DNA from: a virus
Taxonomy: Duplodnaviria; Heunggongvirae; Uroviricota; Caudoviricetes
Virus record (IMG/VR): IMGVR_UViG_3300045988_147489
Location: 20,848-84,847 of that record
Reading direction: 5' to 3' (one strand)
Length of the DNA: 64,000 nucleotides
The notes beneath the pieces are model-generated. The model searched no databases and was not told the DNA's origin. It saw only the letters and a list, made by a program, of their open reading frames with translations. Made by a program: the position numbers and the translations under genes. Shown here piece by piece: positions 3,382 through 45,543 of the stretch (the first letter of the stretch is position 1; every line of letters begins with the position of its first letter).

Positions 3382-3406
3382 GTATGAGTTTAAAAGGATT
3401 TAAACC

Positions 3407-36324: not shown

Positions 36325-36523
36325 ACGGGAGAAGGAAACGCTTCATGAAATCAGTAAGTGGCCGGAGTTCCCTGAGTACTGGAAGCCTAAAACGCGAGCT
36401 AAGTTAGAGCGTTTAGGGTTGGTTGCAAACGTTTCTGAAACGAAGTGTTCGGCCAACTACCAGTTAACTGATAAAGGGAAAGTATTGCTACAGCAATTAG
36501 TAGAATCAGGAGTGTTAAAATGA
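36308..36523 (+). CDS. hypothetical small protein
   Basis: 71-aa ORF, start overlaps previous gene. Confidence 0.35.
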   Translation: MIVLSKREKETLHEISKWPEFPEYWKPKTRAKLERLGLVANVSETKCSANYQLTDKGKVLLQQLVESGVLK

Positions 36524-36672
36524 TTCCATACATCTCATTAGCTTTTATGGGTGGCTTCCTTATCGGCTTCGGCATCTGTCGTGATTTAATTAAGCAGGAA
36601 CTTAAAACCAAAACACTGTGCATCGGAAAGCGTGTGTATCGGGTAGTTCATGAAACAAAGGTTAAAAAATGA
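36520..36672 (+). CDS. small membrane protein (50 aa), paralogue 2
   Basis: not in ORF track; translation MIPYISLAFMGGFLIGFGICRDLIKQELKTKTLCIGKRVYRVVHETKVKK; same TM plus G(K/R)R.YR.V pattern as paralogue 1. Confidence 0.4.
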   Translation: MIPYISLAFMGGFLIGFGICRDLIKQELKTKTLCIGKRVYRVVHETKVKK

Positions 36673-36959
36673 GCAATTTAACTTCTTGGGACTGGTGGTT
36701 GGCCACCTATTTCTTAGCGGCCGGAGTCGCATTCGCCTTTTACGTAGGTCAGTTAGTCGTAAAACTGTTGCTGATTAAATTTGCTAGTCATAAACGTATC
36801 GATGATGGTCTGTGGCGTCTTGGCACCCTGGTGGAAACTCGCTACGGGCAACTTAAGGAGAACGAAACCATTACTATCCAGGCGAAACGATTCACTGCCA
36901 CCATCACAAGAACACCTAGTCGTAGAGTGGCCTTGATCAAAAAAGTCACAACCGAATAA
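36669..36959 (+). CDS. small membrane protein (96 aa), paralogue 3
   Basis: N-terminal TM helix then basic region; start overlaps previous stop (ATGA). Confidence 0.4.
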   Translation: MSNLTSWDWWLATYFLAAGVAFAFYVGQLVVKLLLIKFASHKRIDDGLWRLGTLVETRYGQLKENETITIQAKRFTATITRTPSRRVALIKKVTTE

Positions 36960-37195
36960 AAACATCATGATAAGTATTTACTTACTTATCTTTTATGTAT
37001 AAGATGACTTTGTTTTCGTTGAGACGCGACTGTTTGAACTTAAATACAAGTGCAAACGAAGAAGTCTATCTGGCAGTAGCCTAATAAGCCAAACACCAGC
37101 GAGGTCAGTTTCCAGCCTCGTTACCGAAATGGGACACACTGAGCGAGTGTGATTGCAGAACGCAGGAGGGAACATTCATGTTCCCTCCGATGAAG

Positions 37196-37273
37196 TAACA
37201 GAATGGGCGGTTGGTATATTTTCAACTCCATATGACTCCCGGATTCTTAGCCTCTGACCGCCCATCCTGTTAC
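37196..37273. repeat. long-range inverted repeat A (about 17-bp arms, 2 mismatches)
   Basis: TAACAGAATGGGCGGTT ... GACCGCCCATCCTGTTA. Confidence 0.5.
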
Positions 37274-37347
37274 GTCATTTTGTTCAATTATGTCGTTTAT
37301 ACTGGGTTAAAAAGCGGCGACGTAGCCCGGCTGGTATGGTTAGCCAG

Positions 37348-37471
37348 CACACAACGTTGAGGCCATTACATTTTTATCAATTCTAAGGTTCTATTCACAG
37401 AGATACCGGCGAGCGTTGATATGTAACATGTTGGGCAAACATTCAATCGGAGTAGTGGCCTCAACGTTGTG
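37348..37471. repeat. long-range inverted repeat B (16-bp perfect arms, 92-nt spacer)
   Basis: CACAACGTTGAGGCCA ... TGGCCTCAACGTTGTG. Confidence 0.6.
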
Positions 37472-37737
37472 AAGACAGGATTGTTGTGTAGGTTTAACCA
37501 CTGTTGCCATTGGTGCCTGTTTTCACAACAAATGATTCCATACATCACATTGTATAAATTACAAAGTAGGTGCTGTCCTCAGAAACATCATCTACTTAAA
37601 GATTTTGCCTTCTACTATTGAGCGAAGTCGAAAGCGTCTGGCACTAACGAAAAGTGCAAGTAGCGGTGCGTTTCCTGGCAGAAACTAAACCGTCGCGATT
37701 GGCACTGTTGAGTAATAAATACTGGCAGTGCTGAATT

Positions 37738-37812
37738 GATGGTGTAGCTCAGCGGTAGAGCAGTTGGCTGTTAACCAACTGGTCGGTGGTTCGAATCCAC
37801 CCACCATCGCCA
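37738..37812 (+). tRNA. tRNA-Asn (anticodon GTT)
   Basis: cloverleaf folded by hand: 7-bp acceptor GATGGTG/CACCATC, anticodon loop CTGTTAA, T-loop GGTTCGAATCC, CCA end. Confidence 0.8.
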
Positions 37813-37817
37813 ATTTA

Positions 37818-37904
37818 GGGGAGTTAGTCCGTAGAGGTAGCGGTGTAGACTGTAAATCTACTGTCATGGCGACTCGGGTGGTTCGACTCCATCACTCCCC
37901 ACCA
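37818..37904 (+). tRNA. tRNA-Tyr (anticodon GTA), long variable arm
   Basis: acceptor GGGGAGT/ACTCCCC, anticodon stem-loop GTAGA-CTGTAAA-TCTAC, T-loop GGTTCGACTCC, CCA end. Confidence 0.75.
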
Positions 37905-37908
37905 AATT

Positions 37909-37984
37909 GCCGGTTTAGCTCAGTTGGTAGAGCGCCTGCCTTGTAAGCAGGATGTCAGCGGTTCGAGTCCGTTAACCGGCACCA
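37909..37984 (+). tRNA. tRNA-Thr (anticodon TGT)
   Basis: acceptor GCCGGTT/AACCGGC, D-arm GCTCAGTTGGTAGAGC, anticodon loop CTTGTAA, T-loop, CCA end. Confidence 0.8.
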
Positions 37985-37992
37985 ACATAATA

Positions 37993-38073
37993 TTGAGAAC
38001 ATTGGCGTAACGGGTTCATATCCCAATTTATGAATATAATGTTGCGTTGCAGCGTGACAACCAGTGTTCTCAA
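37993..38073. repeat. long-range inverted repeat C immediately 3' of tRNA-Thr
   Basis: TTGAGAACATTGG ... CCAGTGTTCTCAA (1 mismatch). Confidence 0.5.
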
Positions 38074-38278
38074 CATTGTGGTGAATGCACAGGCTGATGT
38101 GCGACGTAGAAGCAAGCGGATGAACTGCCTGAAGGCCGCTAACGTAGGCAATGCCGGAGATCAGCACCGGCCATCACAATTTGGCTCTCTTGCAACAGCA
38201 TAACGCTGAAATACGTCCAACCTGGTGCGGTCTGATCACCCGCCGTTAGCTCCACGAAACGGAGCACACAACACAATT

Positions 38279-38365
38279 GGAGAGTAGGGAGCATGGTGCT
38301 CAAGCGGTCTTGAAAACCGTCCCATTGTGCAAACGATGATGGTTCGATTCCATTACTCTCCGCCA
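38279..38365 (+). tRNA. tRNA-Ser (anticodon TGA), long variable arm
   Basis: acceptor GGAGAGT/ACTCTCC, anticodon stem-loop GCGGT-CTTGAAA-ACCGT, T-loop GGTTCGATTCC, CCA end. Confidence 0.65.
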
Positions 38366-38367
38366 GA

Positions 38368-38445
38368 CACAGCGTTGAGCGGTTTGGCCTTTTAATCAAC
38401 CAGATTAAGACTCCGCTAACATAAACCAGACCGCTCAACGCTGTG
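38368..38445. repeat. long-range inverted repeat D immediately 3' of tRNA-Ser (16-bp perfect arms)
   Basis: CACAGCGTTGAGCGGT ... ACCGCTCAACGCTGTG; arm sequence resembles repeat B. Confidence 0.6.
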
Positions 38446-38499
38446 ATAGACAATTACGGCAGACGTTCTTAACCATAGCTTGCTAACATCCTAGCAACA

Positions 38500-38542
38500 C
38501 TTTTTTCAGCGCAAAATTCAAAGGGGCTTCGGCCCCTTTTTT
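38500..38542 (+). terminator. terminator-like element; also copy 1 of a direct repeat flanking the lipoprotein gene
   Basis: TTTTCAGCGCAAAATTCAAAGGGGCTTCGGCCCCTTTTTT. Confidence 0.55.
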
Positions 38543-38658
38543 GATTTGTTGACACTTAGTTATATTCACGTATCGTTTTATCGCTTTGATCCGAGGCAGC
38601 GTTAGACTGCCTTCATGTTCCTGATTAGATCGCAGCAGTTAAACATGGAGACAAATTA

Positions 38659-39213
38659 ATGAAGAAGTGCCATCTCAATATTTTCGCATCTCTAATAATT
38701 GCGTTAACACTAACAGGGTGTAACGAATCTGAAATAGATGAATTAACGTTAATAGGCAAAGATAAAAGTGAACTTGAACAAAATTATAAAGCCCAATTCA
38801 AGAAGCTAACACAAAATGTTGAAGTGTTTATTCTTCAAGATAAAAATAGTCCGACTGAAAAAGAACCGCATACGAATGGCAACCTGATCGACGGAAAAGT
38901 CGAAATGTCATTAACCAGTAATGTTGGTAAGTATACATTCATCCAGATAAGTGAAATGCTGACAAAGGAGTACGGAAAACCCGTTGCTACAAAAGATCGT
39001 GTTTTTAACAGAGAAGCAGTATCTGGCATGGACTGTATTGAAACTAAAACTTGTGGAGCTGGTAAATATTATGAAATCTTTCGAGGGAAGGATAGATTGA
39101 TTATGGTGTCAAACGGTGCCGGTCTTTTACACGAAAAGGAAGGTGTAACACTACTCACCATCACCGATAAACAATTTAAATTTTCTCGTTTAGAAGAAGA
39201 TAAAATAAAATAA
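38659..39213 (+). CDS. putative lipoprotein (AT-rich cargo gene)
   Basis: signal peptide ending in lipobox LTGC; visibly AT-rich codon usage unlike neighbours. Confidence 0.5.
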   Translation: MKKCHLNIFASLIIALTLTGCNESEIDELTLIGKDKSELEQNYKAQFKKLTQNVEVFILQDKNSPTEKEPHTNGNLIDGKVEMSLTSNVGKYTFIQISEMLTKEYGKPVATKDRVFNREAVSGMDCIETKTCGAGKYYEIFRGKDRLIMVSNGAGLLHEKEGVTLLTITDKQFKFSRLEEDKIK

Positions 39214-39420
39214 TGACAGGGGCGTATACGCCCCTATCTAAAATTTGACATTAAACATATATTGCATCTGGTATCAGCAATTTTTGTGCGCTATGTAAGT
39301 CCTTACCTGCAATCAGTCTCATAAATATCGGATTTTACGTAGCGTACCATCGTTACAGCAAGCATCAAATTATTCACTGACATTTATGCGCTGAAAACAG
39401 CGTTACTTACCGTAAAATAA

Positions 39421-39455
39421 CAATTTTCAGCGCAAAATTTAAAGAGGCTTCGAAT
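39421..39455 (+). repeat. copy 2 of direct repeat (degenerate version of 38500-38530)
   Basis: CAATTTTCAGCGCAAAATTTAAAGAGGCTTCGAAT versus TTTTTTCAGCGCAAAATTCAAAGGGGCTTCGGCC. Confidence 0.5.
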
Positions 39456-39464
39456 CTGCACAAC

Positions 39465-40793
39465 CTATTGTGCGTACTCGCCCAATTTTAATGTTTCACG
39501 CTTATATTCATCAACTATCTCACATGATTTAATATAGATATGGCACAATAGGTTATCACTATCATCATTATCGTTTATTGCCATAAGTGCCAACTTTTTC
39601 TCATATTCATCGATCGCATCACTCAACTGATCACCTGTAATTACATCTGACTCACTCGAGAAATATAACTGCCCAAGATTTACCGCATTTTTTCCAGTTT
39701 TTCTTTGCTCTATGTAATTTTTAATCATATCCTTCACATCCTTTTCACTACTCAGTATTTCACTTTCGAAATGGACATGCTCTGAAATCGACGCGACTCT
39801 GCAACCGATCAAACGATGAATATAGTCATCAATAGACGTAACACTATCATTAGCTTTTTTTAGTGCTTCATCAAAAATGCTCTTTACCTCATTTGGCAAA
39901 TTTTTAAAATAATCATCAATTAAACCAGATAATGGTGTTTGGTAGTTCATTAATACCGATGAAGCAACTTGCGGACGACGAGCCACCCAGATTTCTTTGA
40001 CTTCAACTTGAGAATAATATTCCTTAATCACGTTCCAAAAGTATTTTAACATCTTGGTTTTAAATATTTTATCAAATCTATCCTTTATAAATAGCTCTAC
40101 TTCAGGCATGCTTGAATAAGCATCATCAAAGAATATTTCATCTTTGAAAAAATCATATTTATTTAATAAAGCATACAGTTTTTTTGAATCCAGCGGTTCA
40201 CGAGAATCGATGTCCAATCCAAAAACTGCAATAACCAACTTCATTTGCGGTGGTATTTTTCCACTCAATTGAATAATATATTCCATTTTTTCATCAAAAC
40301 AATTTCCATCTATGTAAAATCGGTTATCTACATAGACTAATATATTGGTAATATGTTTTATGTACTGAATAACCTCATGCTTTCTTACCAATGGATAAAA
40401 AAACGAATGCATTTCATTTTTATTAAATTGTTTTTTTGTCTGTTCAATGATTGGTATGACATTATTGTACAACTCATCATGCTGATTTAATAAAGTGTCA
40501 AACCATTCTTTGAAAGAATTTTTTCTCATCTCAATCAATGAATCGGTAGTTATCCTAACGGCCTCCAGTGCTGCCTTTGCACTTTTTCTTGCTTCATAGG
40601 CGTTCCACGCTGTTGCACAAAAAGCCGCTGTCGTTATAAAACTACTCAATACAGCAATTTGGTCTGTAACCTTCCAATCTTGAAATGGCTCAAGTAGTAA
40701 ACCTAAAAACAAAATTATTATGGAAAACATTAGAATTGCAACAGAAATAAAAACAGGCATGTATGCTCTCGTACTTACCATTGTTAGTTGCAT
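39465..40793 (-). CDS. 442-aa membrane protein of unknown function (two N-terminal TM helices plus large cytoplasmic domain); candidate accessory/defence gene
   Basis: long ORF on opposite strand to surrounding genes; strongly AT-rich; no catalytic motif recognised. Confidence 0.5.
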   Translation of the reverse strand: MQLTMVSTRAYMPVFISVAILMFSIIILFLGLLLEPFQDWKVTDQIAVLSSFITTAAFCATAWNAYEARKSAKAALEAVRITTDSLIEMRKNSFKEWFDTLLNQHDELYNNVIPIIEQTKKQFNKNEMHSFFYPLVRKHEVIQYIKHITNILVYVDNRFYIDGNCFDEKMEYIIQLSGKIPPQMKLVIAVFGLDIDSREPLDSKKLYALLNKYDFFKDEIFFDDAYSSMPEVELFIKDRFDKIFKTKMLKYFWNVIKEYYSQVEVKEIWVARRPQVASSVLMNYQTPLSGLIDDYFKNLPNEVKSIFDEALKKANDSVTSIDDYIHRLIGCRVASISEHVHFESEILSSEKDVKDMIKNYIEQRKTGKNAVNLGQLYFSSESDVITGDQLSDAIDEYEKKLALMAINDNDDSDNLLCHIYIKSCEIVDEYKRETLKLGEYAQ

Positions 40794-40932
40794 TAAATAT
40801 TAACTAAATTAAGTTGTGATTAACAGGCAAGTTTACGATGTATTGCAGACATTAAATAGGTTTTTACTTACCTATCTTTTATAGTAATATTTATTTTCTG
40901 GTTAAGTAACACATAATTATTATGAGGTAAAC

Positions 40933-41178
40933 ATGACTATCGTTATCTACGGACGAGATAACTGCTCATATTGCAAACGTGCGGTCGAGCTGGCGAAACA
41001 ACTAAAGGGACACGGCTATGGTGATTATGAGTACATCGACATCACCACTGCCGGTATCGATAAGGAAAAACTTAGCGAAATTGTTGGCAAACCGGTAGAG
41101 ACTATCCCCCAGGTACTGATCGATGGCCAACCGATTGGCGGATACACAGAACTGGCTGCATACGTCACCACTCTCTAA
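40933..41178 (+). CDS. glutaredoxin-like protein
   Basis: N-terminal CSYC active-site motif in thioredoxin-fold context (VIYGRDNCSYCKRA); 81 aa. Confidence 0.7.
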   Translation: MTIVIYGRDNCSYCKRAVELAKQLKGHGYGDYEYIDITTAGIDKEKLSEIVGKPVETIPQVLIDGQPIGGYTELAAYVTTL

Positions 41179-41183
41179 TTTTA

Positions 41184-41208
41184 ACGGCTCACAGGAGCCG
41201 TTTTTGTT
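41184..41208 (+). terminator. rho-independent terminator
   Basis: CGGCTC-ACAG-GAGCCG followed by TTTTTGTT. Confidence 0.65.
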
Positions 41209-41388
41209 CCCACCAAACTCACGCTTGGTTCCCTTAAAATTCAAAAAACAACGGCTAAATGATTCCATACCTACTATGTATGGAATCATTACTGAAAATG
41301 AGTTACTTTTACTCTTGATCCTATAAGAATCTATGCCTAATATACTGTTTACTTATACAGTGAATCGGCGTAACTCGGTGATTGTCAT

Positions 41389-42492
41389 ATGAAAAATAGC
41401 TTTGACAGAGCACGCGCTGCGGAGAACACCTCAAAAGAGGCGATTGAGTATCTCGAAAGAGCATCTCAAATGCAGGCCGTTATGATCTCGCAGGTCAGCA
41501 ATGACATGAGATTCTCGGACGCATTCATGTTATTCACTCGCTTATCTCTGCTGATAACAAGACGTCGGCCAGAGATCGCTGTTCATTGTATTTTGATACA
41601 TGTTTTGCCGCACATTGCCGATGTAAAAGTAAGTGACATTAATAGGTTCATGGTGAACCAACTGGTCAACCCACTAATACTGGATGGCAAAATTGTTATG
41701 GGCCGCCGCGTTTTCTCTCTGATGAAGCAGTTCCTTAGCTGGTGCGCCTTCCAGGGGATGATAGACGTGTCACCGTTAAACGATATGTCACTAAACAAAG
41801 TTGCCGGTGGCGCAAAGCCTACACCTCGCGAGCGGAAGCTGACCGACGCAGAGGTATGGGTGTTCTGGAATATATGGGACTACTTCAATGTGTGCGCTGG
41901 TACAAAATGGGCGGCCAGGCTGTGTCTTGTATCCGCAAGACGACCTGACGAAGTACTGCGGGCTAAAAAAAGTGAGTTCAATCTTAAGCGTGGGGTTTGG
42001 AATCAAGGCAAGAGGAACAAATCTGCCCGTGAGCATTCTCTGCCTTTAAGCTCATTAATGCGCACTTGTATTGAAGAGTTGTTCGAATATGGTAAAGACA
42101 GCCAGTGGCTCGTGCCTTCGAATAAAAAAATCGGGAAAGACCTTCCTATGTCTAAAGTGGCAATAGCCCAGGCATTACGTCGTATTCTGGAACGACCAGA
42201 ACTGATGGAGCTTGAGCCATTTACACCCCGAGATTTGCGCCGTACTGCGCGTAGTTACTTCCCAGCATTAGGCATAAGCCAGGAGGTATCACGTAAAATC
42301 ATGAACCACAGTCTTGAGGGGATAGATCGGGTCTACGACCGGCACGATTATATGGACGAGATGCGAGACGCCTTAGAAAGTTTCTCGACGTACATCGCAT
42401 CAATCGTAGAGCAACCGGATTTAGACGAAATTGACCACAAATTTAAGGGAGATCGTCTATCAACAGAGCTTATTCGTGTAAATTTTTCATAG
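41389..42492 (+). CDS. tyrosine recombinase / phage integrase family protein
   Basis: C-terminal catalytic-domain pattern with conserved Arg/His/Tyr (LRRTARSYF, HSLEGIDRVYDRHDY). Confidence 0.75.
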   Translation: MKNSFDRARAAENTSKEAIEYLERASQMQAVMISQVSNDMRFSDAFMLFTRLSLLITRRRPEIAVHCILIHVLPHIADVKVSDINRFMVNQLVNPLILDGKIVMGRRVFSLMKQFLSWCAFQGMIDVSPLNDMSLNKVAGGAKPTPRERKLTDAEVWVFWNIWDYFNVCAGTKWAARLCLVSARRPDEVLRAKKSEFNLKRGVWNQGKRNKSAREHSLPLSSLMRTCIEELFEYGKDSQWLVPSNKKIGKDLPMSKVAIAQALRRILERPELMELEPFTPRDLRRTARSYFPALGISQEVSRKIMNHSLEGIDRVYDRHDYMDEMRDALESFSTYIASIVEQPDLDEIDHKFKGDRLSTELIRVNFS

Positions 42493-42873
42493 AGACTTTA
42501 TGGCCTCAACAACCTTTTGTGATGCGCCTTTCTCTTTACCGAATCGCTCGTTATATGCAGCAAGAACCTGTTTTTCGTCCTCGTTAAGAGGAGCAGTGCC
42601 TTCTTTGTATAAAAATGCTGCGAGTTCGGGTTGGCGTTCTTCCAGCACCATCATCATAAGACGACTTGGCTCAATGCCCAGTGCCAGCGCCAGCGGACGA
42701 ACCTTATCGATAGGCAAAGGAATTTTGCCGCTTTTAATTAAAGAAAGGTTGTTGGCGTTTTTATACCCAATTGTTTTGGCTATCTGGGCCTGGCTCATAG
42801 GTGAGGATTCAATCAACCCTGCGATAAAAGCAGCATAGCGACTTTCTATAAATTCAATCTTGTTGTCAGACAT
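42487..42873 (-). CDS. HTH (XRE/Cro-CI-like) transcriptional regulator
   Basis: helix-turn-helix signature QAQIAKTIGYKNANNLSLIKSGK; 3' end overlaps integrase 3' end by 6 bp. Confidence 0.6.
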   Translation of the reverse strand: MSDNKIEFIESRYAAFIAGLIESSPMSQAQIAKTIGYKNANNLSLIKSGKIPLPIDKVRPLALALGIEPSRLMMMVLEERQPELAAFLYKEGTAPLNEDEKQVLAAYNERFGKEKGASQKVVEAIKSL

Positions 42874-43123
42874 TGTTACAACCTTTGCGCGTTCAATTCT
42901 CTCTGGTAAGTGCTTACCGATATTACATCAAAGGTTAGGGTTGTAAAGCTATTATCATTTTTTCGATAGGCACTTAAAAGACCGGTTAAAGGCCATTGCA
43001 CGGAGAAAAATTGGCCCAAAACAGGTAAGAAAATTAACTTGCATATGATATGAATGTATTCAGTATTGATATAAATTTTAGTAGTATTCCTTACCATAGT
43101 ATAAGTTAGAATGGATTGATTGA

Positions 43124-43336
43124 ATGAACACCACTATTTCCAGCCTAATCGCTCTTGAGATCGGACACGTACAGAAATTAGCTGATGAGTGTGTAGCTGA
43201 CATCCTCACCGATCTACCGAATGAGCAGATTCAGGTTGGTGTGAATGACACAACTGGCTTTATATTCGAACTTAACAACAAACGCTTCACGCTTCTCAAT
43301 ATCGGCTCCGGGTCTTTAGCCGTCAGAATCTGTTAA
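43124..43336 (+). CDS. hypothetical small protein
   Basis: 70-aa ORF; followed by 9-bp-stem hairpin CTGCGCGAA...TTCGCGCAG at about 43350-43383. Confidence 0.3.
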   Translation: MNTTISSLIALEIGHVQKLADECVADILTDLPNEQIQVGVNDTTGFIFELNNKRFTLLNIGSGSLAVRIC

Positions 43337-43434
43337 CCCCTCTTCTCCCTGCGCGAATGGCTTAGTTCCCTGTTCGCGCAGTGCTACATTAAACACACTA
43401 GTAAATAATTTGTTTTCATAACAAAGGATTAGCC

Positions 43435-45543
43435 ATGTCTAAAAAACGTTCCATCAAAGAGGTTCAGGACTTCCGTGACAGTGTAAAACGAGTAGTCGCT
43501 CTCCTTTCAGGTAAAAACATCCCTGTTGCAGAACGAGGGGACGACGCTTATGTACGCTATAACGATGATGGAGAGCCAATTCTCGTAAACATCCCATCAA
43601 TCCCGGATAACGCAACACCGGCATTGATGAATGCTGTGCGCGGATTTCTCGATCATGAGGTTGCTCACATTTTGTTTACCGATATTCGTGTGTCCAACAA
43701 AATGAGAGAAAAAGGACGCGTTCCTTCCTGGTCGCTATGGAATGCCTTAGAAGACGTGTTCATCGAGCGAAAAATGGGTCAGGTCTTTAACGGAACAAGA
43801 CGTAATCTGATGGCAACTCAGCGCCTTATAATCGAAAAAGTCTTTAAACCAAAGGCTTCAGAGGCTATTGCTTATTGTGGCAAAGATCAGCGCGCGCTTT
43901 TTCTAAACTTCTTTCTCTGTCCGGTTGTAAGAGCCTGGGATGGCCAAGCACCGTTCGTAGATTTCATGGATGAATACTGGCCTGTCATTGAGAAACCAAT
44001 TTCATTATTAAAAGAACATGGTATCGATGTGGCCGTGCGTAACATGTCTTGCACCGAGGATTGTGTAAAGGTGGCTGCGACCATAGCTAAGATCCTCAAA
44101 GACACTGAAAGTGAAAGCAAAGGTAAGGAGTCAGCTCCGGGAAAAACTTCCGATCCTTCAGACGCTGACCAGACGGATGCCTCTGGAGAAAACAATGAAG
44201 ACAACGAAGATCATGAGACACCCTCATCGTTAGATAATCACAAATCTATCGAATCAGAATCACATAGTAAGCACAAACATGATAATAACGACAGCGATGA
44301 TTCAGATAATTCTGAATCATCAGAAACAATATTCGATGATACAGAAAATGATAAAGAGGTATCAGATTCTGATGCTTCTGATAACGCGGCGTCAGAATCA
44401 TTAACCGCTGACCACGAAAAAAGAAAAACGACAGAAGACGGCTCTTCAGATATCCCAACTCCGTCAAAAATGAGTCTGGAAGAGGCTTTAGAGGAGCTGG
44501 ATAGCATAGAAGATGAAGTCGGAGGCATGACAGAAGATGCTCTATCCGAAACGATTAAAAGCGAGTTAACAGAAAGCTCGAAAAGCGAATACAGGCCATA
44601 CAATCGCTCATACGACTTCATCGGCTCGATTGATCAGGCAGAAGCCCATATCAAACGGCTTATTAAAACATTCTCCGATATTGATTTGGGAGGATATCCA
44701 ATCAGCCGCTATCGCATCGTTCCTGAAGGCAACCAGCTCTTCGACAAATATATTGAAAAGCATCTTTCGTCAGGTGTTTCGTCGACGCTGGCAAAAGACC
44801 TGGAGCGAGCAATAGCAAGCAGAAACAGAGTTCAGTTTATACCGGGCCAGCGTCGGGGGCGCATTCATGGTTCTAGTATCTACAGATTAGCAATGAATGA
44901 TGCTCGCGTGTTTCGTAAAAAAGAAGAATCTAAAGCCGTTAACGCCTGTGTTCAACAAGTGATTGATTTATCAGGTTCAATGAGTGGTATAACGATTAAA
45001 CTGGCTCTTGCAAGTGCATATACCATCGCCGATGCCCTTGATCGAATAAATGTTCCCAACATTATCACCGGCTTCACTACATTTGGTAGTCATATGGCGG
45101 CAGGAGAACTTAAGGCTGTCAAGTATGAGTTCTCTCGCTTTGAATCTTTAATGCTACCTATCATCAAAAATTGGAATGAAAAGGTAAATTCTCGCGAAGT
45201 TCGCTCACGTATGGGGTGCGTAGGCTACACATTCCCACTTCTTAATAACGTGGATGGTGAAAGCATAGCCAGCCTTGCATCGTTATTTTCCGGTCGCTTG
45301 GAGGACAGGAAGATCATGCTTGTTCTGAGTGATGGCGCGCCGTGGGCTGTTGGGAGAGGTTTTGACGCTCATTTGCGTTCAGTTGCGAAGCAAATTGAAA
45401 CGCAGACTGATATTGATTTGATGGCAATTGGCATCATGACTGACGCACCGGAGAGATTTTACTCAAATCATGCCCTGGTAACGAGCGTTGATAGTCTTGG
45501 TTCATCTGTAGTTACTGAACTATCTCGTATCATTTTAAAGTGA
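43435..45543 (+). CDS. von Willebrand factor A domain protein with long acidic Ser/Asp-rich linker (CobT-like architecture)
   Basis: MIDAS motif VIDLSGSMSG; low-complexity acidic region about aa 230-370. Confidence 0.65.
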   Translation: MSKKRSIKEVQDFRDSVKRVVALLSGKNIPVAERGDDAYVRYNDDGEPILVNIPSIPDNATPALMNAVRGFLDHEVAHILFTDIRVSNKMREKGRVPSWSLWNALEDVFIERKMGQVFNGTRRNLMATQRLIIEKVFKPKASEAIAYCGKDQRALFLNFFLCPVVRAWDGQAPFVDFMDEYWPVIEKPISLLKEHGIDVAVRNMSCTEDCVKVAATIAKILKDTESESKGKESAPGKTSDPSDADQTDASGENNEDNEDHETPSSLDNHKSIESESHSKHKHDNNDSDDSDNSESSETIFDDTENDKEVSDSDASDNAASESLTADHEKRKTTEDGSSDIPTPSKMSLEEALEELDSIEDEVGGMTEDALSETIKSELTESSKSEYRPYNRSYDFIGSIDQAEAHIKRLIKTFSDIDLGGYPISRYRIVPEGNQLFDKYIEKHLSSGVSSTLAKDLERAIASRNRVQFIPGQRRGRIHGSSIYRLAMNDARVFRKKEESKAVNACVQQVIDLSGSMSGITIKLALASAYTIADALDRINVPNIITGFTTFGSHMAAGELKAVKYEFSRFESLMLPIIKNWNEKVNSREVRSRMGCVGYTFPLLNNVDGESIASLASLFSGRLEDRKIMLVLSDGAPWAVGRGFDAHLRSVAKQIETQTDIDLMAIGIMTDAPERFYSNHALVTSVDSLGSSVVTELSRIILK

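Follow-up and report, generated by a model that had tools for sequence, protein, structure and literature searches.

A predicted AbiC/AbiP-like membrane protein in an exchangeable slot of an SSU5-type phage-plasmid of Escherichia coli

Two AT-rich genes between a tRNA cluster and grxA

We analysed a stretch of 64,000 nucleotides (hereafter the window; all positions refer to it) from the caudoviricete virus record IMGVR_UViG_3300045988_147489, and followed up two convergent genes of this stretch, one encoding a predicted lipoprotein and the other a larger membrane protein. The replicon is an E. coli phage-plasmid of the SSU5/pHCM2 type: plasmid NZ_CP083480.1 (rep_cluster_488, non-mobilizable, 111.7 kb) is 99.2% identical to the 7-kb stretch 36500-43500, and the similarity of that stretch to phages CMS-2020a and Cyrano is confined to its flanks. 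The order of genes is DNA ligase, small open reading frames (ORFs), four tRNAs, a 184-aa ORF, a 442-codon ORF, grxA, a tyrosine integrase, a helix-turn-helix regulator and CobT (Table 1). The initial annotation, made from the letters of the window, had placed two convergent ORFs between the tRNA cluster and the integrase; both are present, and their position was correctly described except that a glutaredoxin gene intervenes before the integrase. It had also called them strikingly AT-rich, and their guanine-cytosine (GC) contents of 0.328 (z = -3.59) and 0.350 (z = -3.05) are indeed the lowest among the 49 ORFs of the window (mean 0.469, standard deviation 0.039). Their GC contents at third codon positions are 0.298 and 0.297 (z about -2.7), and the ten lowest-GC 1-kb segments of the whole 64 kb all start within 39201-40101.

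Table 1 Features of the locus, in window coordinates
Feature	Position	Strand	Evidence or detail
tRNA-Asn/Tyr/Thr/Ser cluster	37738-38365		ARAGORN
tRNA-Ser(UGA), final gene of the conserved left flank	38279..38365	+	ARAGORN
Direct repeat copy 1 (29 nt), left bracket of the lipoprotein module	38503..38531		repeat family D5
Terminator-like hairpin and T-run closing the tRNA cluster	38520..38539	+	8-bp stem, 5 GC pairs, TTTGATTT tail
Sigma-70-like promoter upstream of the lipoprotein gene, in variable DNA	38549..38576	+	TTGACA, 16 nt, TATCGT; 10/12 matches
Predicted lipoprotein, 184 aa	38659..39213	+	lipobox LTG/C at Cys21, Asn at +2
GC-rich hairpin between the convergent genes, likely terminator	39215..39238		10-bp stem, 7 GC pairs, minus-strand scoring
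Direct repeat copy 2 (29 nt), right bracket, just downstream of the stop codon of the AbiC-like gene	39424..39452		
Putative AbiC/AbiP-like (putAbiC-superfamily) membrane-anchored protein	39465..40760 (ORF to 40793)	-	431 aa from M12
Stretch aligned to the Pfam putAbiC core, residues 131-206	40143..40370	-	P0008/P0009 hits mapped through alignment A1
Putative TM2, residues 35-55, then basic juxtamembrane helix	40596..40658	-	17-mer Kyte-Doolittle peak 1.79; AF2 helix 43-67
TM1, residues 2-23 (431 numbering)	40692..40757	-	Kyte-Doolittle 19-mer up to 2.79, 17-mer peak 3.12
Divergent intergenic region, AbiC-like gene to grxA; sharp identity drop versus relatives at the right end	40761..40932		
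grxA-type glutaredoxin, opening the conserved right flank	40933-41178	+	PF00462 E = 6.5e-11, PGAP name
Tyrosine integrase	41389-42492		

Translation of the larger gene most likely starts at M12 (position 40760), because nine of nine homologues begin at the aligned motif MP(V/I/F)L, the start called by the Prokaryotic Genome Annotation Pipeline (PGAP) agrees, and a GAGAG resembling a Shine-Dalgarno sequence precedes the codon. The ORF exists at the length first assigned, 442 aa, whilst the protein is probably one of 431 aa. Two N-terminal transmembrane (TM) helices had been proposed for it: TM1 is strongly hydrophobic and corresponds to helix 11-33 (442 numbering) of an AlphaFold2 (AF2) model, whereas TM2 is of moderate hydrophobicity but is helical in the model and lies within the best-conserved block of the protein. 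The distribution of charges, with K/R absent ahead of TM1, a 12-residue loop of net acidic charge and seven K/R within 30 residues past TM2, favours under the positive-inside rule a helical hairpin with the large domain in the cytoplasm. The model as a whole (predicted local distance difference test score, pLDDT, 73.6; predicted template-modelling score 0.65; core pLDDT 70-91) has a pair of N-terminal helices and a juxtamembrane helix of 50 residues, together with a helical domain and a small beta element. No significant structural neighbour was found for it in PDB or BFVD, which matches what has been stated for AbiC and AbiP (PMC13064643).

Homology of the large protein to the putAbiC superfamily

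Profile and structure searches of both proteins had been proposed at the outset; direct profile searches of both, and a structure search with the model of the large protein, came back empty, and it was the scanning of homologues that linked the large protein to PF16872. Profile searches of the large protein against Pfam, NCBIfam, PADLOC and PDB sequences returned nothing meaningful, and its sole strong direct match was phrog_18168, a PHROG of unknown function (E = 5e-204). Two alleles from the same slot in related phage-plasmids, P0008 (22.0 bits) and P0009 (22.7 bits), reach the 22-bit gathering cut-off of PF16872, the putAbiC family, in their conserved core. Eight of ten distant members tested singly exceed this cut-off with 25-37 bits, each time in the same central region, and matches at E <= 0.01 were obtained for 51 of the 64 full-length family members (best 1.4e-11). 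When the clade of the window protein (alignment A1) was compared with 19 distant members (A3) using hhalign, the two aligned over 410 columns with a probability of 100% (E = 1.4e-43), and the homology is therefore full-length, reaching beyond the 80-residue Pfam core. Pfam describes PF16872 as "Putative phage abortive infection protein", and relatives in Pectobacterium, Yersinia, Klebsiella, Enterobacter, Dickeya, Serratia and other genera carry the NCBI name "putative phage abortive infection protein". One putAbiC-positive relative, P0106 (JGI, 481 aa), is labelled 'antirestriction protein' at its source, possibly as a result of a fusion or a misannotation.

The connection to characterised phage resistance proteins was traced through an AbiC homologue on the Lactococcus plasmid p275A, listed in PMC6458302 (L013:9554-10567). 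This protein matches the PADLOC AbiC model end to end (E = 4e-133), as well as AbiP (3e-5) and PF16872 (32 bits, residues 190-245), and aligns with the enterobacterial clade in the core only (hhalign 80%, E = 1.3e-5, 60 columns). Enterobacterial members in turn show weak matches to PADLOC AbiC at the core (1e-6 to 6e-4), and P0031 also matches AbiP (2e-4). Taken together, these profile comparisons indicate that the large protein is a hitherto unrecognised and highly divergent relative of the phage-resistance proteins AbiC and AbiP, which are membrane-anchored. The initial annotation had suggested an undescribed defence or abortive-infection function: its abortive-infection guess gains support from the putAbiC homology, and 'undescribed' has to be given up. 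The family is known and its mechanism still open; what is new is a branch in the slot of SSU5-type elements that escapes annotation.

The family is tiny: clustering at 90% identity gives 10 clusters in a set of 5.8 billion proteins, and a profile search of 1.84 billion representatives found 86 clusters at 50% identity, whose lengths are mostly 415-500 aa. Neither protein of the locus gave a tblastn match in INPHARED (50,697 phage records), despite their strong PHROG matches. This small family size, together with the lack of a recognisable catalytic motif, would suit a decaying or functionless AT-rich ORF that hitch-hikes in a recombination hotspot. We regard this as highly improbable, since several genera carry full-length, intact alleles of constant length (~398-438 aa as annotated), with conserved blocks and a fold core modelled with confidence, and since five genomes, isolated from humans, a cat and a gull, carry the gene intact at 99.9-100% identity.

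An exchangeable slot and a separate lipoprotein module

We compared the window with ten related elements. Between the tRNA-Ser terminator and grxA, related phage-plasmids have a replaceable slot (~38544 to 40920 in the window), where flanks that are 92-99% identical in DNA enclose content that differs. The left flank, 97-99% identical in relatives up to ~38543, ends at 38542-38546 in every comparison (L004, L005 and L014-L018 among them), just past the terminator hairpin of the tRNA cluster, and the right flank picks up again at ~40920-40942, just ahead of grxA. The slot is empty in some relatives and otherwise holds other alleles of the large gene, a candidate HNH-nuclease defence gene or a Gp49-family gene. 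In the window and L001 it contains the lipoprotein gene and the 431-aa gene; L004 carries a 420-aa allele (56% identical), and L015, L016 and L018 carry alleles of 432-438 aa (29-34% identical), all four without the lipoprotein gene. An unrelated 298-aa gene occupies the slot of L017, a 75%-identical lipoprotein and a 262-aa protein that of L002 (NZ_LR882992.1) and its group, a frameshifted lipoprotein gene that of L003 (CP059946.1), and a Gp49-family gene fused to the grxA operon that of Cyrano (L005) and L014. The first ~130 residues of the 262-aa protein (L002:3658-4446) match PADLOC PDC-M68A (6e-25), Shedu SduA (1e-16) and CBASS Cap5-type SAVED-HNH chains (PDB 9om4, 7rwk), though the protein is without a SAVED domain; its arrangement is found in L002 and at least 13 other plasmids of E. 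coli, E. fergusonii and Shigella. The proposal that this locus is a variable hotspot is thus borne out, related phage-plasmids having identical breakpoints and different cargo that includes the HNH-nuclease candidate and toxin-type genes.

Nucleotide identity to L015, L016 and L018, measured over sliding 100-nt segments, is 93-95% to the right of ~40950, 60-72% over 40500-40899 and 40-55% further left. BLAST high-scoring segment pairs had seemed to carry flank of ~92% identity into the 5' end of the large gene, as if recombination junctions lay inside it; the sliding identity led us to reject such junctions. The N-terminal conservation of the large gene reflects constraint at the protein level. 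Between all alleles, TM2 and the juxtamembrane helix (residues 37-100) retain 52-73% identity, and in comparison with five distant alleles (P0006-P0010) identity falls to 36-40% in the putAbiC core and to 17-25% in the C-terminal half (residues 221-442). The alleles of the slot are 29-56% identical in protein, as against 92-99% in DNA for the flanks.

At the protein level, a family member was found in 138 plasmids (71 Escherichia, 37 Klebsiella, 18 Enterobacter, 6 Salmonella, 3 Pantoea, 2 Citrobacter and 1 uncultured), nearly all of them non-mobilizable replicons of ~105-115 kb, compared with 601 plasmids carrying a related integrase. A family member is therefore present in about a quarter of SSU5-type plasmids and, in line with the initial annotation, the large gene is not a core gene at this locus. 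The allele of the window is itself rare, occurring in three plasmids of PLSDB and in 5 of 5426 complete E. coli genomes, each time plasmid-borne. The syntenic position is kept across four genera, with the gene of Klebsiella, Enterobacter and Salmonella elements also lying in the slot, divergent from the (phoH-gp49-)grxA operon. Such synteny and divergent transcription might point to a protein that serves the phage-plasmid itself, in lysis timing, in maintenance or in competition with other plasmids or phage-plasmids, and a toxic membrane protein could be an addiction module. We consider a role of this kind unlikely: roughly three quarters of related elements, SSU5 and Cyrano included, lack the gene, which makes it dispensable; homologues are found on unrelated types of element; and Rfam and small-ORF scans of the island for an antitoxin or small-RNA partner returned tRNAs only.

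Outside phage-plasmids, homologues occur as solo cargo in the conjugation module of an Enterobacter integrative and conjugative element (ICE), beside a prophage tail-fibre-assembly gene in Yersinia, and at the edge of a D5-primase island in Klebsiella. Family members are always solo, with varying neighbours, whether on a phage-plasmid, an ICE, a prophage end or an island. The GC content of each member examined is 0.07-0.23 below that of its surroundings (0.325 against 0.558 for the Enterobacter ICE copy), and lactococcal abi genes have long been noted for unusually low GC. The initial annotation had called the composition foreign; this does not hold, given the low GC of every family member examined, lactococcal AbiC included, and the persistence of low GC across the family means that composition provides no evidence of a recent arrival of the window copy.

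The 184-aa protein is probably an outer-membrane lipoprotein moron; it has a classical lipobox, and Asn at +2 points to sorting to the outer membrane under the Lol rule. Its family comprises 16 clusters, in Enterobacteriaceae only, with 61-85% conservation across 12 clusters, and Cys21, Cys126 and Cys132 are invariant. It matches phrog_15156 (unknown function; E = 1e-108) and has no match in Pfam, PADLOC or PDB; its AF2 model is unreliable (pLDDT 46.7). Similarity to Cor (phrog_1119) is not significant and covers the signal-peptide region only (E = 0.041, residues 1-50), so that the protein is not assigned to Cor. A receptor-masking role in exclusion would be a reasonable guess for a lipoprotein carried by a phage, with nothing specific in its favour here.

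The gene for this lipoprotein is a separate, independently mobile insertion of 921 bp, bracketed by 29-nt repeats and furnished with a promoter-like site and a terminator. The two repeat copies are 93% identical and spaced by 921 nt, and in L004, which is without the lipoprotein gene, a single stretch (locus 2926-2966) aligns to both. The promoter was called from its match to the consensus alone, and the region as a whole contains no more promoter-like sites than expected from shuffling; the putative terminator hairpin directly follows the stop codon of the lipoprotein gene on the plus strand. By DNA search, 108 plasmids carry the lipoprotein gene, pHCM2-type plasmids of Salmonella and a P1-type (IncY) plasmid among them, and 79 carry the large gene, with only partial overlap between the two sets.

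Both genes had originally been treated as one island, and a single two-gene system, with the lipoprotein as envelope sensor and the 431-aa protein as membrane effector, would account for their adjacency, convergent orientation and shared AT-richness in the window. Their distribution essentially excludes this reading, which we hold to be very improbable. An allele of the large gene is present in L004 and at least 37 other plasmids, and the loci inspected in L004, L015, L016 and L018 have no lipoprotein gene; the lipoprotein gene has other neighbours in L002 and L003 and a homologue in unrelated context on the IncY plasmid; and the lipoprotein module has its repeat brackets, promoter-like site and terminator to itself. 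Consistent co-occurrence was thus not found, and the island therefore consists of two independent cargo modules that are adjacent by chance. The homologue on the IncY plasmid pTET-GZEC065 (NZ_CP048027.1; L023:2240-2794) is a gene for 184 aa that matches the lipoprotein gene in its 3' half (query 262-555, 74% at the nucleotide level) and adjoins a YaaC-family gene; the cassette therefore moves between phage-plasmid groups. In L003 (3102-3652), the lipoprotein gene appears frameshifted, with two tblastn pieces joining at 3389, and is probably a pseudogene.

Several further features lie around the slot. The tRNA-Asn and tRNA-Thr genes (37738-37984) are 84-90% identical to their counterparts in P1, P7, D6 and RCS47 of the P1 family, in which the lipoprotein gene plp stands beside those tRNA genes. 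Plp is unrelated to the lipoprotein of the window, and was ruled out as its identity (E = 0.37). The tRNA array is variable, tRNA-Tyr (37818-37904) being absent from Cyrano and L003. The spacer of ~280 bp between tRNA-Thr and tRNA-Ser (37991-38272), which has no tRNA or Rfam match, is kept in L014 and L015 and absent or replaced in L004, L016, L017 and L018. Directly after tRNA-Ser, within the conserved left flank, lies a 20-nt inverted repeat (38368-38445; 95% complementary, 38-nt loop). A second variable slot, empty in the window, is situated between grxA and the integrase (41179-41256): in Cyrano and an E. marmotae plasmid it is occupied by an unrelated minus-strand gene of 184 aa, and in L003, L019 and L020 by a hypothetical gene and a YafO-family toxin gene, joined in L019 by a colicin E1 family microcin immunity gene. 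Where the flank resumes upstream of the integrase there is a near-perfect palindrome (41258-41290; 16-nt arms, 94% complementary, 1 nt apart), beside which L003, L005 and L014 have their breakpoints (41240-41256), and which could be an operator or a recombination site. In MF554642.1, a plasmid of an 'uncultured bacterium', the 7-kb region is spread over 8.3 kb in two pieces with a 'mobile element protein', which points to the insertion of an insertion sequence within the region.

A candidate abortive-infection factor and its known relatives

We favour, as rather probable, the interpretation that the large gene encodes a single-protein, membrane-anchored anti-phage factor of the Abi type, belonging to the putAbiC superfamily and carried as exchangeable cargo of a hotspot. 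This degree of confidence attaches to the designation as an anti-phage defence protein, and any specific mechanistic step is rated much lower. The Abi-type interpretation is suggested by the full-length putAbiC homology, the N-terminal helices followed by a helical domain of ~370 aa, the solo occurrence on mobile elements, the patchy presence and the divergence between alleles, and a defence role is further backed by a slot shared with defence-type cargo, namely the HNH nuclease.

Under this interpretation, the protein would be expressed from the resident phage-plasmid in the lysogen and reside in the inner membrane as a helical hairpin whose two termini both face the cytoplasm. Its constant executing part would consist of the conserved TM2/juxtamembrane helix together with the putAbiC core, and the variable C-terminal half would set which component of an invading phage is recognised. 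By analogy with AbiP and AbiC, the trigger may be a late or structural phage protein, and the outcome a block of phage late gene expression or of capsid protein production, possibly via nucleic-acid binding at the membrane. Infection would then abort, and the host population of the phage-plasmid would be protected.

Several observations weigh against this interpretation. The window protein has no PF16872 match at E <= 1, PADLOC AbiC (PDLC02343) matches neither it nor any member of its clade, and the p275A homologue could not be aligned directly to alignment A1 (hhalign 3%), so that the link to lactococcal AbiC is, at sequence level, transitive and limited to a core of ~60-80 residues. The family has no conserved catalytic motif, the shared residues being mostly aromatic or aliphatic plus one His (H94 of the 431-aa protein, in the motif LLNQH), and a consensus scan upstream of M12 gave no convincing promoter. 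We found no experimental phenotype in the literature for any enterobacterial member, and a literature search for PF16872 or putAbiC returned no papers. The mechanism of AbiC is unsolved, and its effects differ from those of AbiP. A lactococcal AbiC-like protein with 38% identity to AbiC did not protect against the phages that were tried (PMC11381338).

Protection could also arise at the envelope: by itself or in concert with the lipoprotein, the membrane protein would act in superinfection exclusion, stopping DNA entry or receptor use without killing the cell. The membrane anchor, the temperate nature of the element and the weakly Cor-like signal-peptide region of the neighbouring lipoprotein are compatible with this. 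Relatives also reside on ICEs and satellite-like islands, however, and not just on phages; the Cor match falls short of significance, and the two genes occur independently. The large size of the predicted cytoplasmic domain, and the homology to AbiC and AbiP, both of which act once phage DNA has entered, better fit a post-injection mechanism, and exclusion therefore seems to us an unlikely explanation.

Returning to the Abi-type interpretation, we put forward more tentatively that the alleles of SSU5-type elements may constitute an unrecognised, fast-diversifying branch of AbiC/AbiP, in which a constant membrane/putAbiC module is combined with a hypervariable sensor to give phage-specific alleles and a swappable immune locus. 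If this doubtful extension were true, the locus would be the first E. coli model amenable to genetics for AbiC-type proteins, whose way of aborting infection has lacked an explanation since 1992. The lactococcal resistance proteins AbiC and AbiP have been known for a long time and have neither a solved structure nor an assigned functional domain. The branch described here is too divergent for Pfam, PADLOC and, apparently, DefenseFinder surveys, and lies in a fixed hotspot of elements widespread in clinical Escherichia, Klebsiella, Enterobacter and Salmonella. The available passages of a DefenseFinder survey of 1227 SSU5-group contigs (10.1101/2025.09.12.675607) report diverse defence systems, and in these passages the slot is not described and AbiC is not listed, the latter being consistent with a branch invisible to current models. 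If the gene is active, defence-system censuses of SSU5-type elements undercount, and the series of alleles that shares one slot in E. coli at 29-56% identity would be handy for mapping trigger specificity and effector function; if it is inactive, it is merely one more hypothetical moron.

Lactococcal AbiC is reportedly encoded on pTN20, as described by Durmaz et al. in 1992. Like the window protein, AbiC and its p275A homologue begin with a pair of hydrophobic helices, after which comes a helical domain without a known fold. The putAbiC core is common to both AbiC and the window protein, each is a single gene on a mobile element, and in both cases GC is well below that of the surroundings (0.26 against 0.36 for the p275A homologue, 0.33 against 0.43 for the window gene). 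The two differ in length, AbiC having 338-344 aa and the window protein 431 aa, of which the last ~200 residues have no AbiC counterpart; their likeness emerges only via intermediates, over a core of ~60-80 residues, and their hosts are Gram-positive and Gram-negative, respectively. AbiC itself consists of two TM helices and an extramembrane domain, superimposes over 93 residues on AbiP, which has one TM helix, and lowers production of the major capsid protein (PMC13064643).

AbiP belongs to the same AbiC/P group via the core (PADLOC AbiP matches L013 at 3e-5 and P0031 at 2e-4), and is the sole mechanistic precedent for the family. It requires its N-terminal membrane anchor and a domain that binds RNA and ssDNA independently of sequence, shows no toxicity by itself, and has the major tail protein of the phage as its trigger (PMC13064643). 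With its one TM helix it is much shorter (223 positions in the PADLOC model) and has no direct match to the window protein. One trait of the AbiC/AbiP group that the modelled window protein appears to share is the N-terminal membrane anchor followed by a helical domain of no known fold.

Closer relatives are the enterobacterial PF16872-positive proteins of ~430-470 aa (such as P0132 of Enterobacter, P0119 of Yersinia and P0128 of Klebsiella), which are full-length homologues of the window protein and share its length class, its N-terminal hydrophobic helices and its occurrence as solo, AT-rich cargo of mobile elements. They are 13-20% identical to it and pass the Pfam threshold, which the window protein does not, and the motifs SPYMR, RS.IRND and FEH, invariant in their clade, are not kept in that of the window. 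With Cor/Llp-type lipoproteins, the neighbouring lipoprotein shares a lipobox and a phage-borne location, traits that indicate a lipoprotein and not a function. The slot, in turn, resembles the P2/P4 hotspots and the accessory regions of P1 and SSU5 in having fixed breakpoints and interchangeable cargo that includes defence-type genes.

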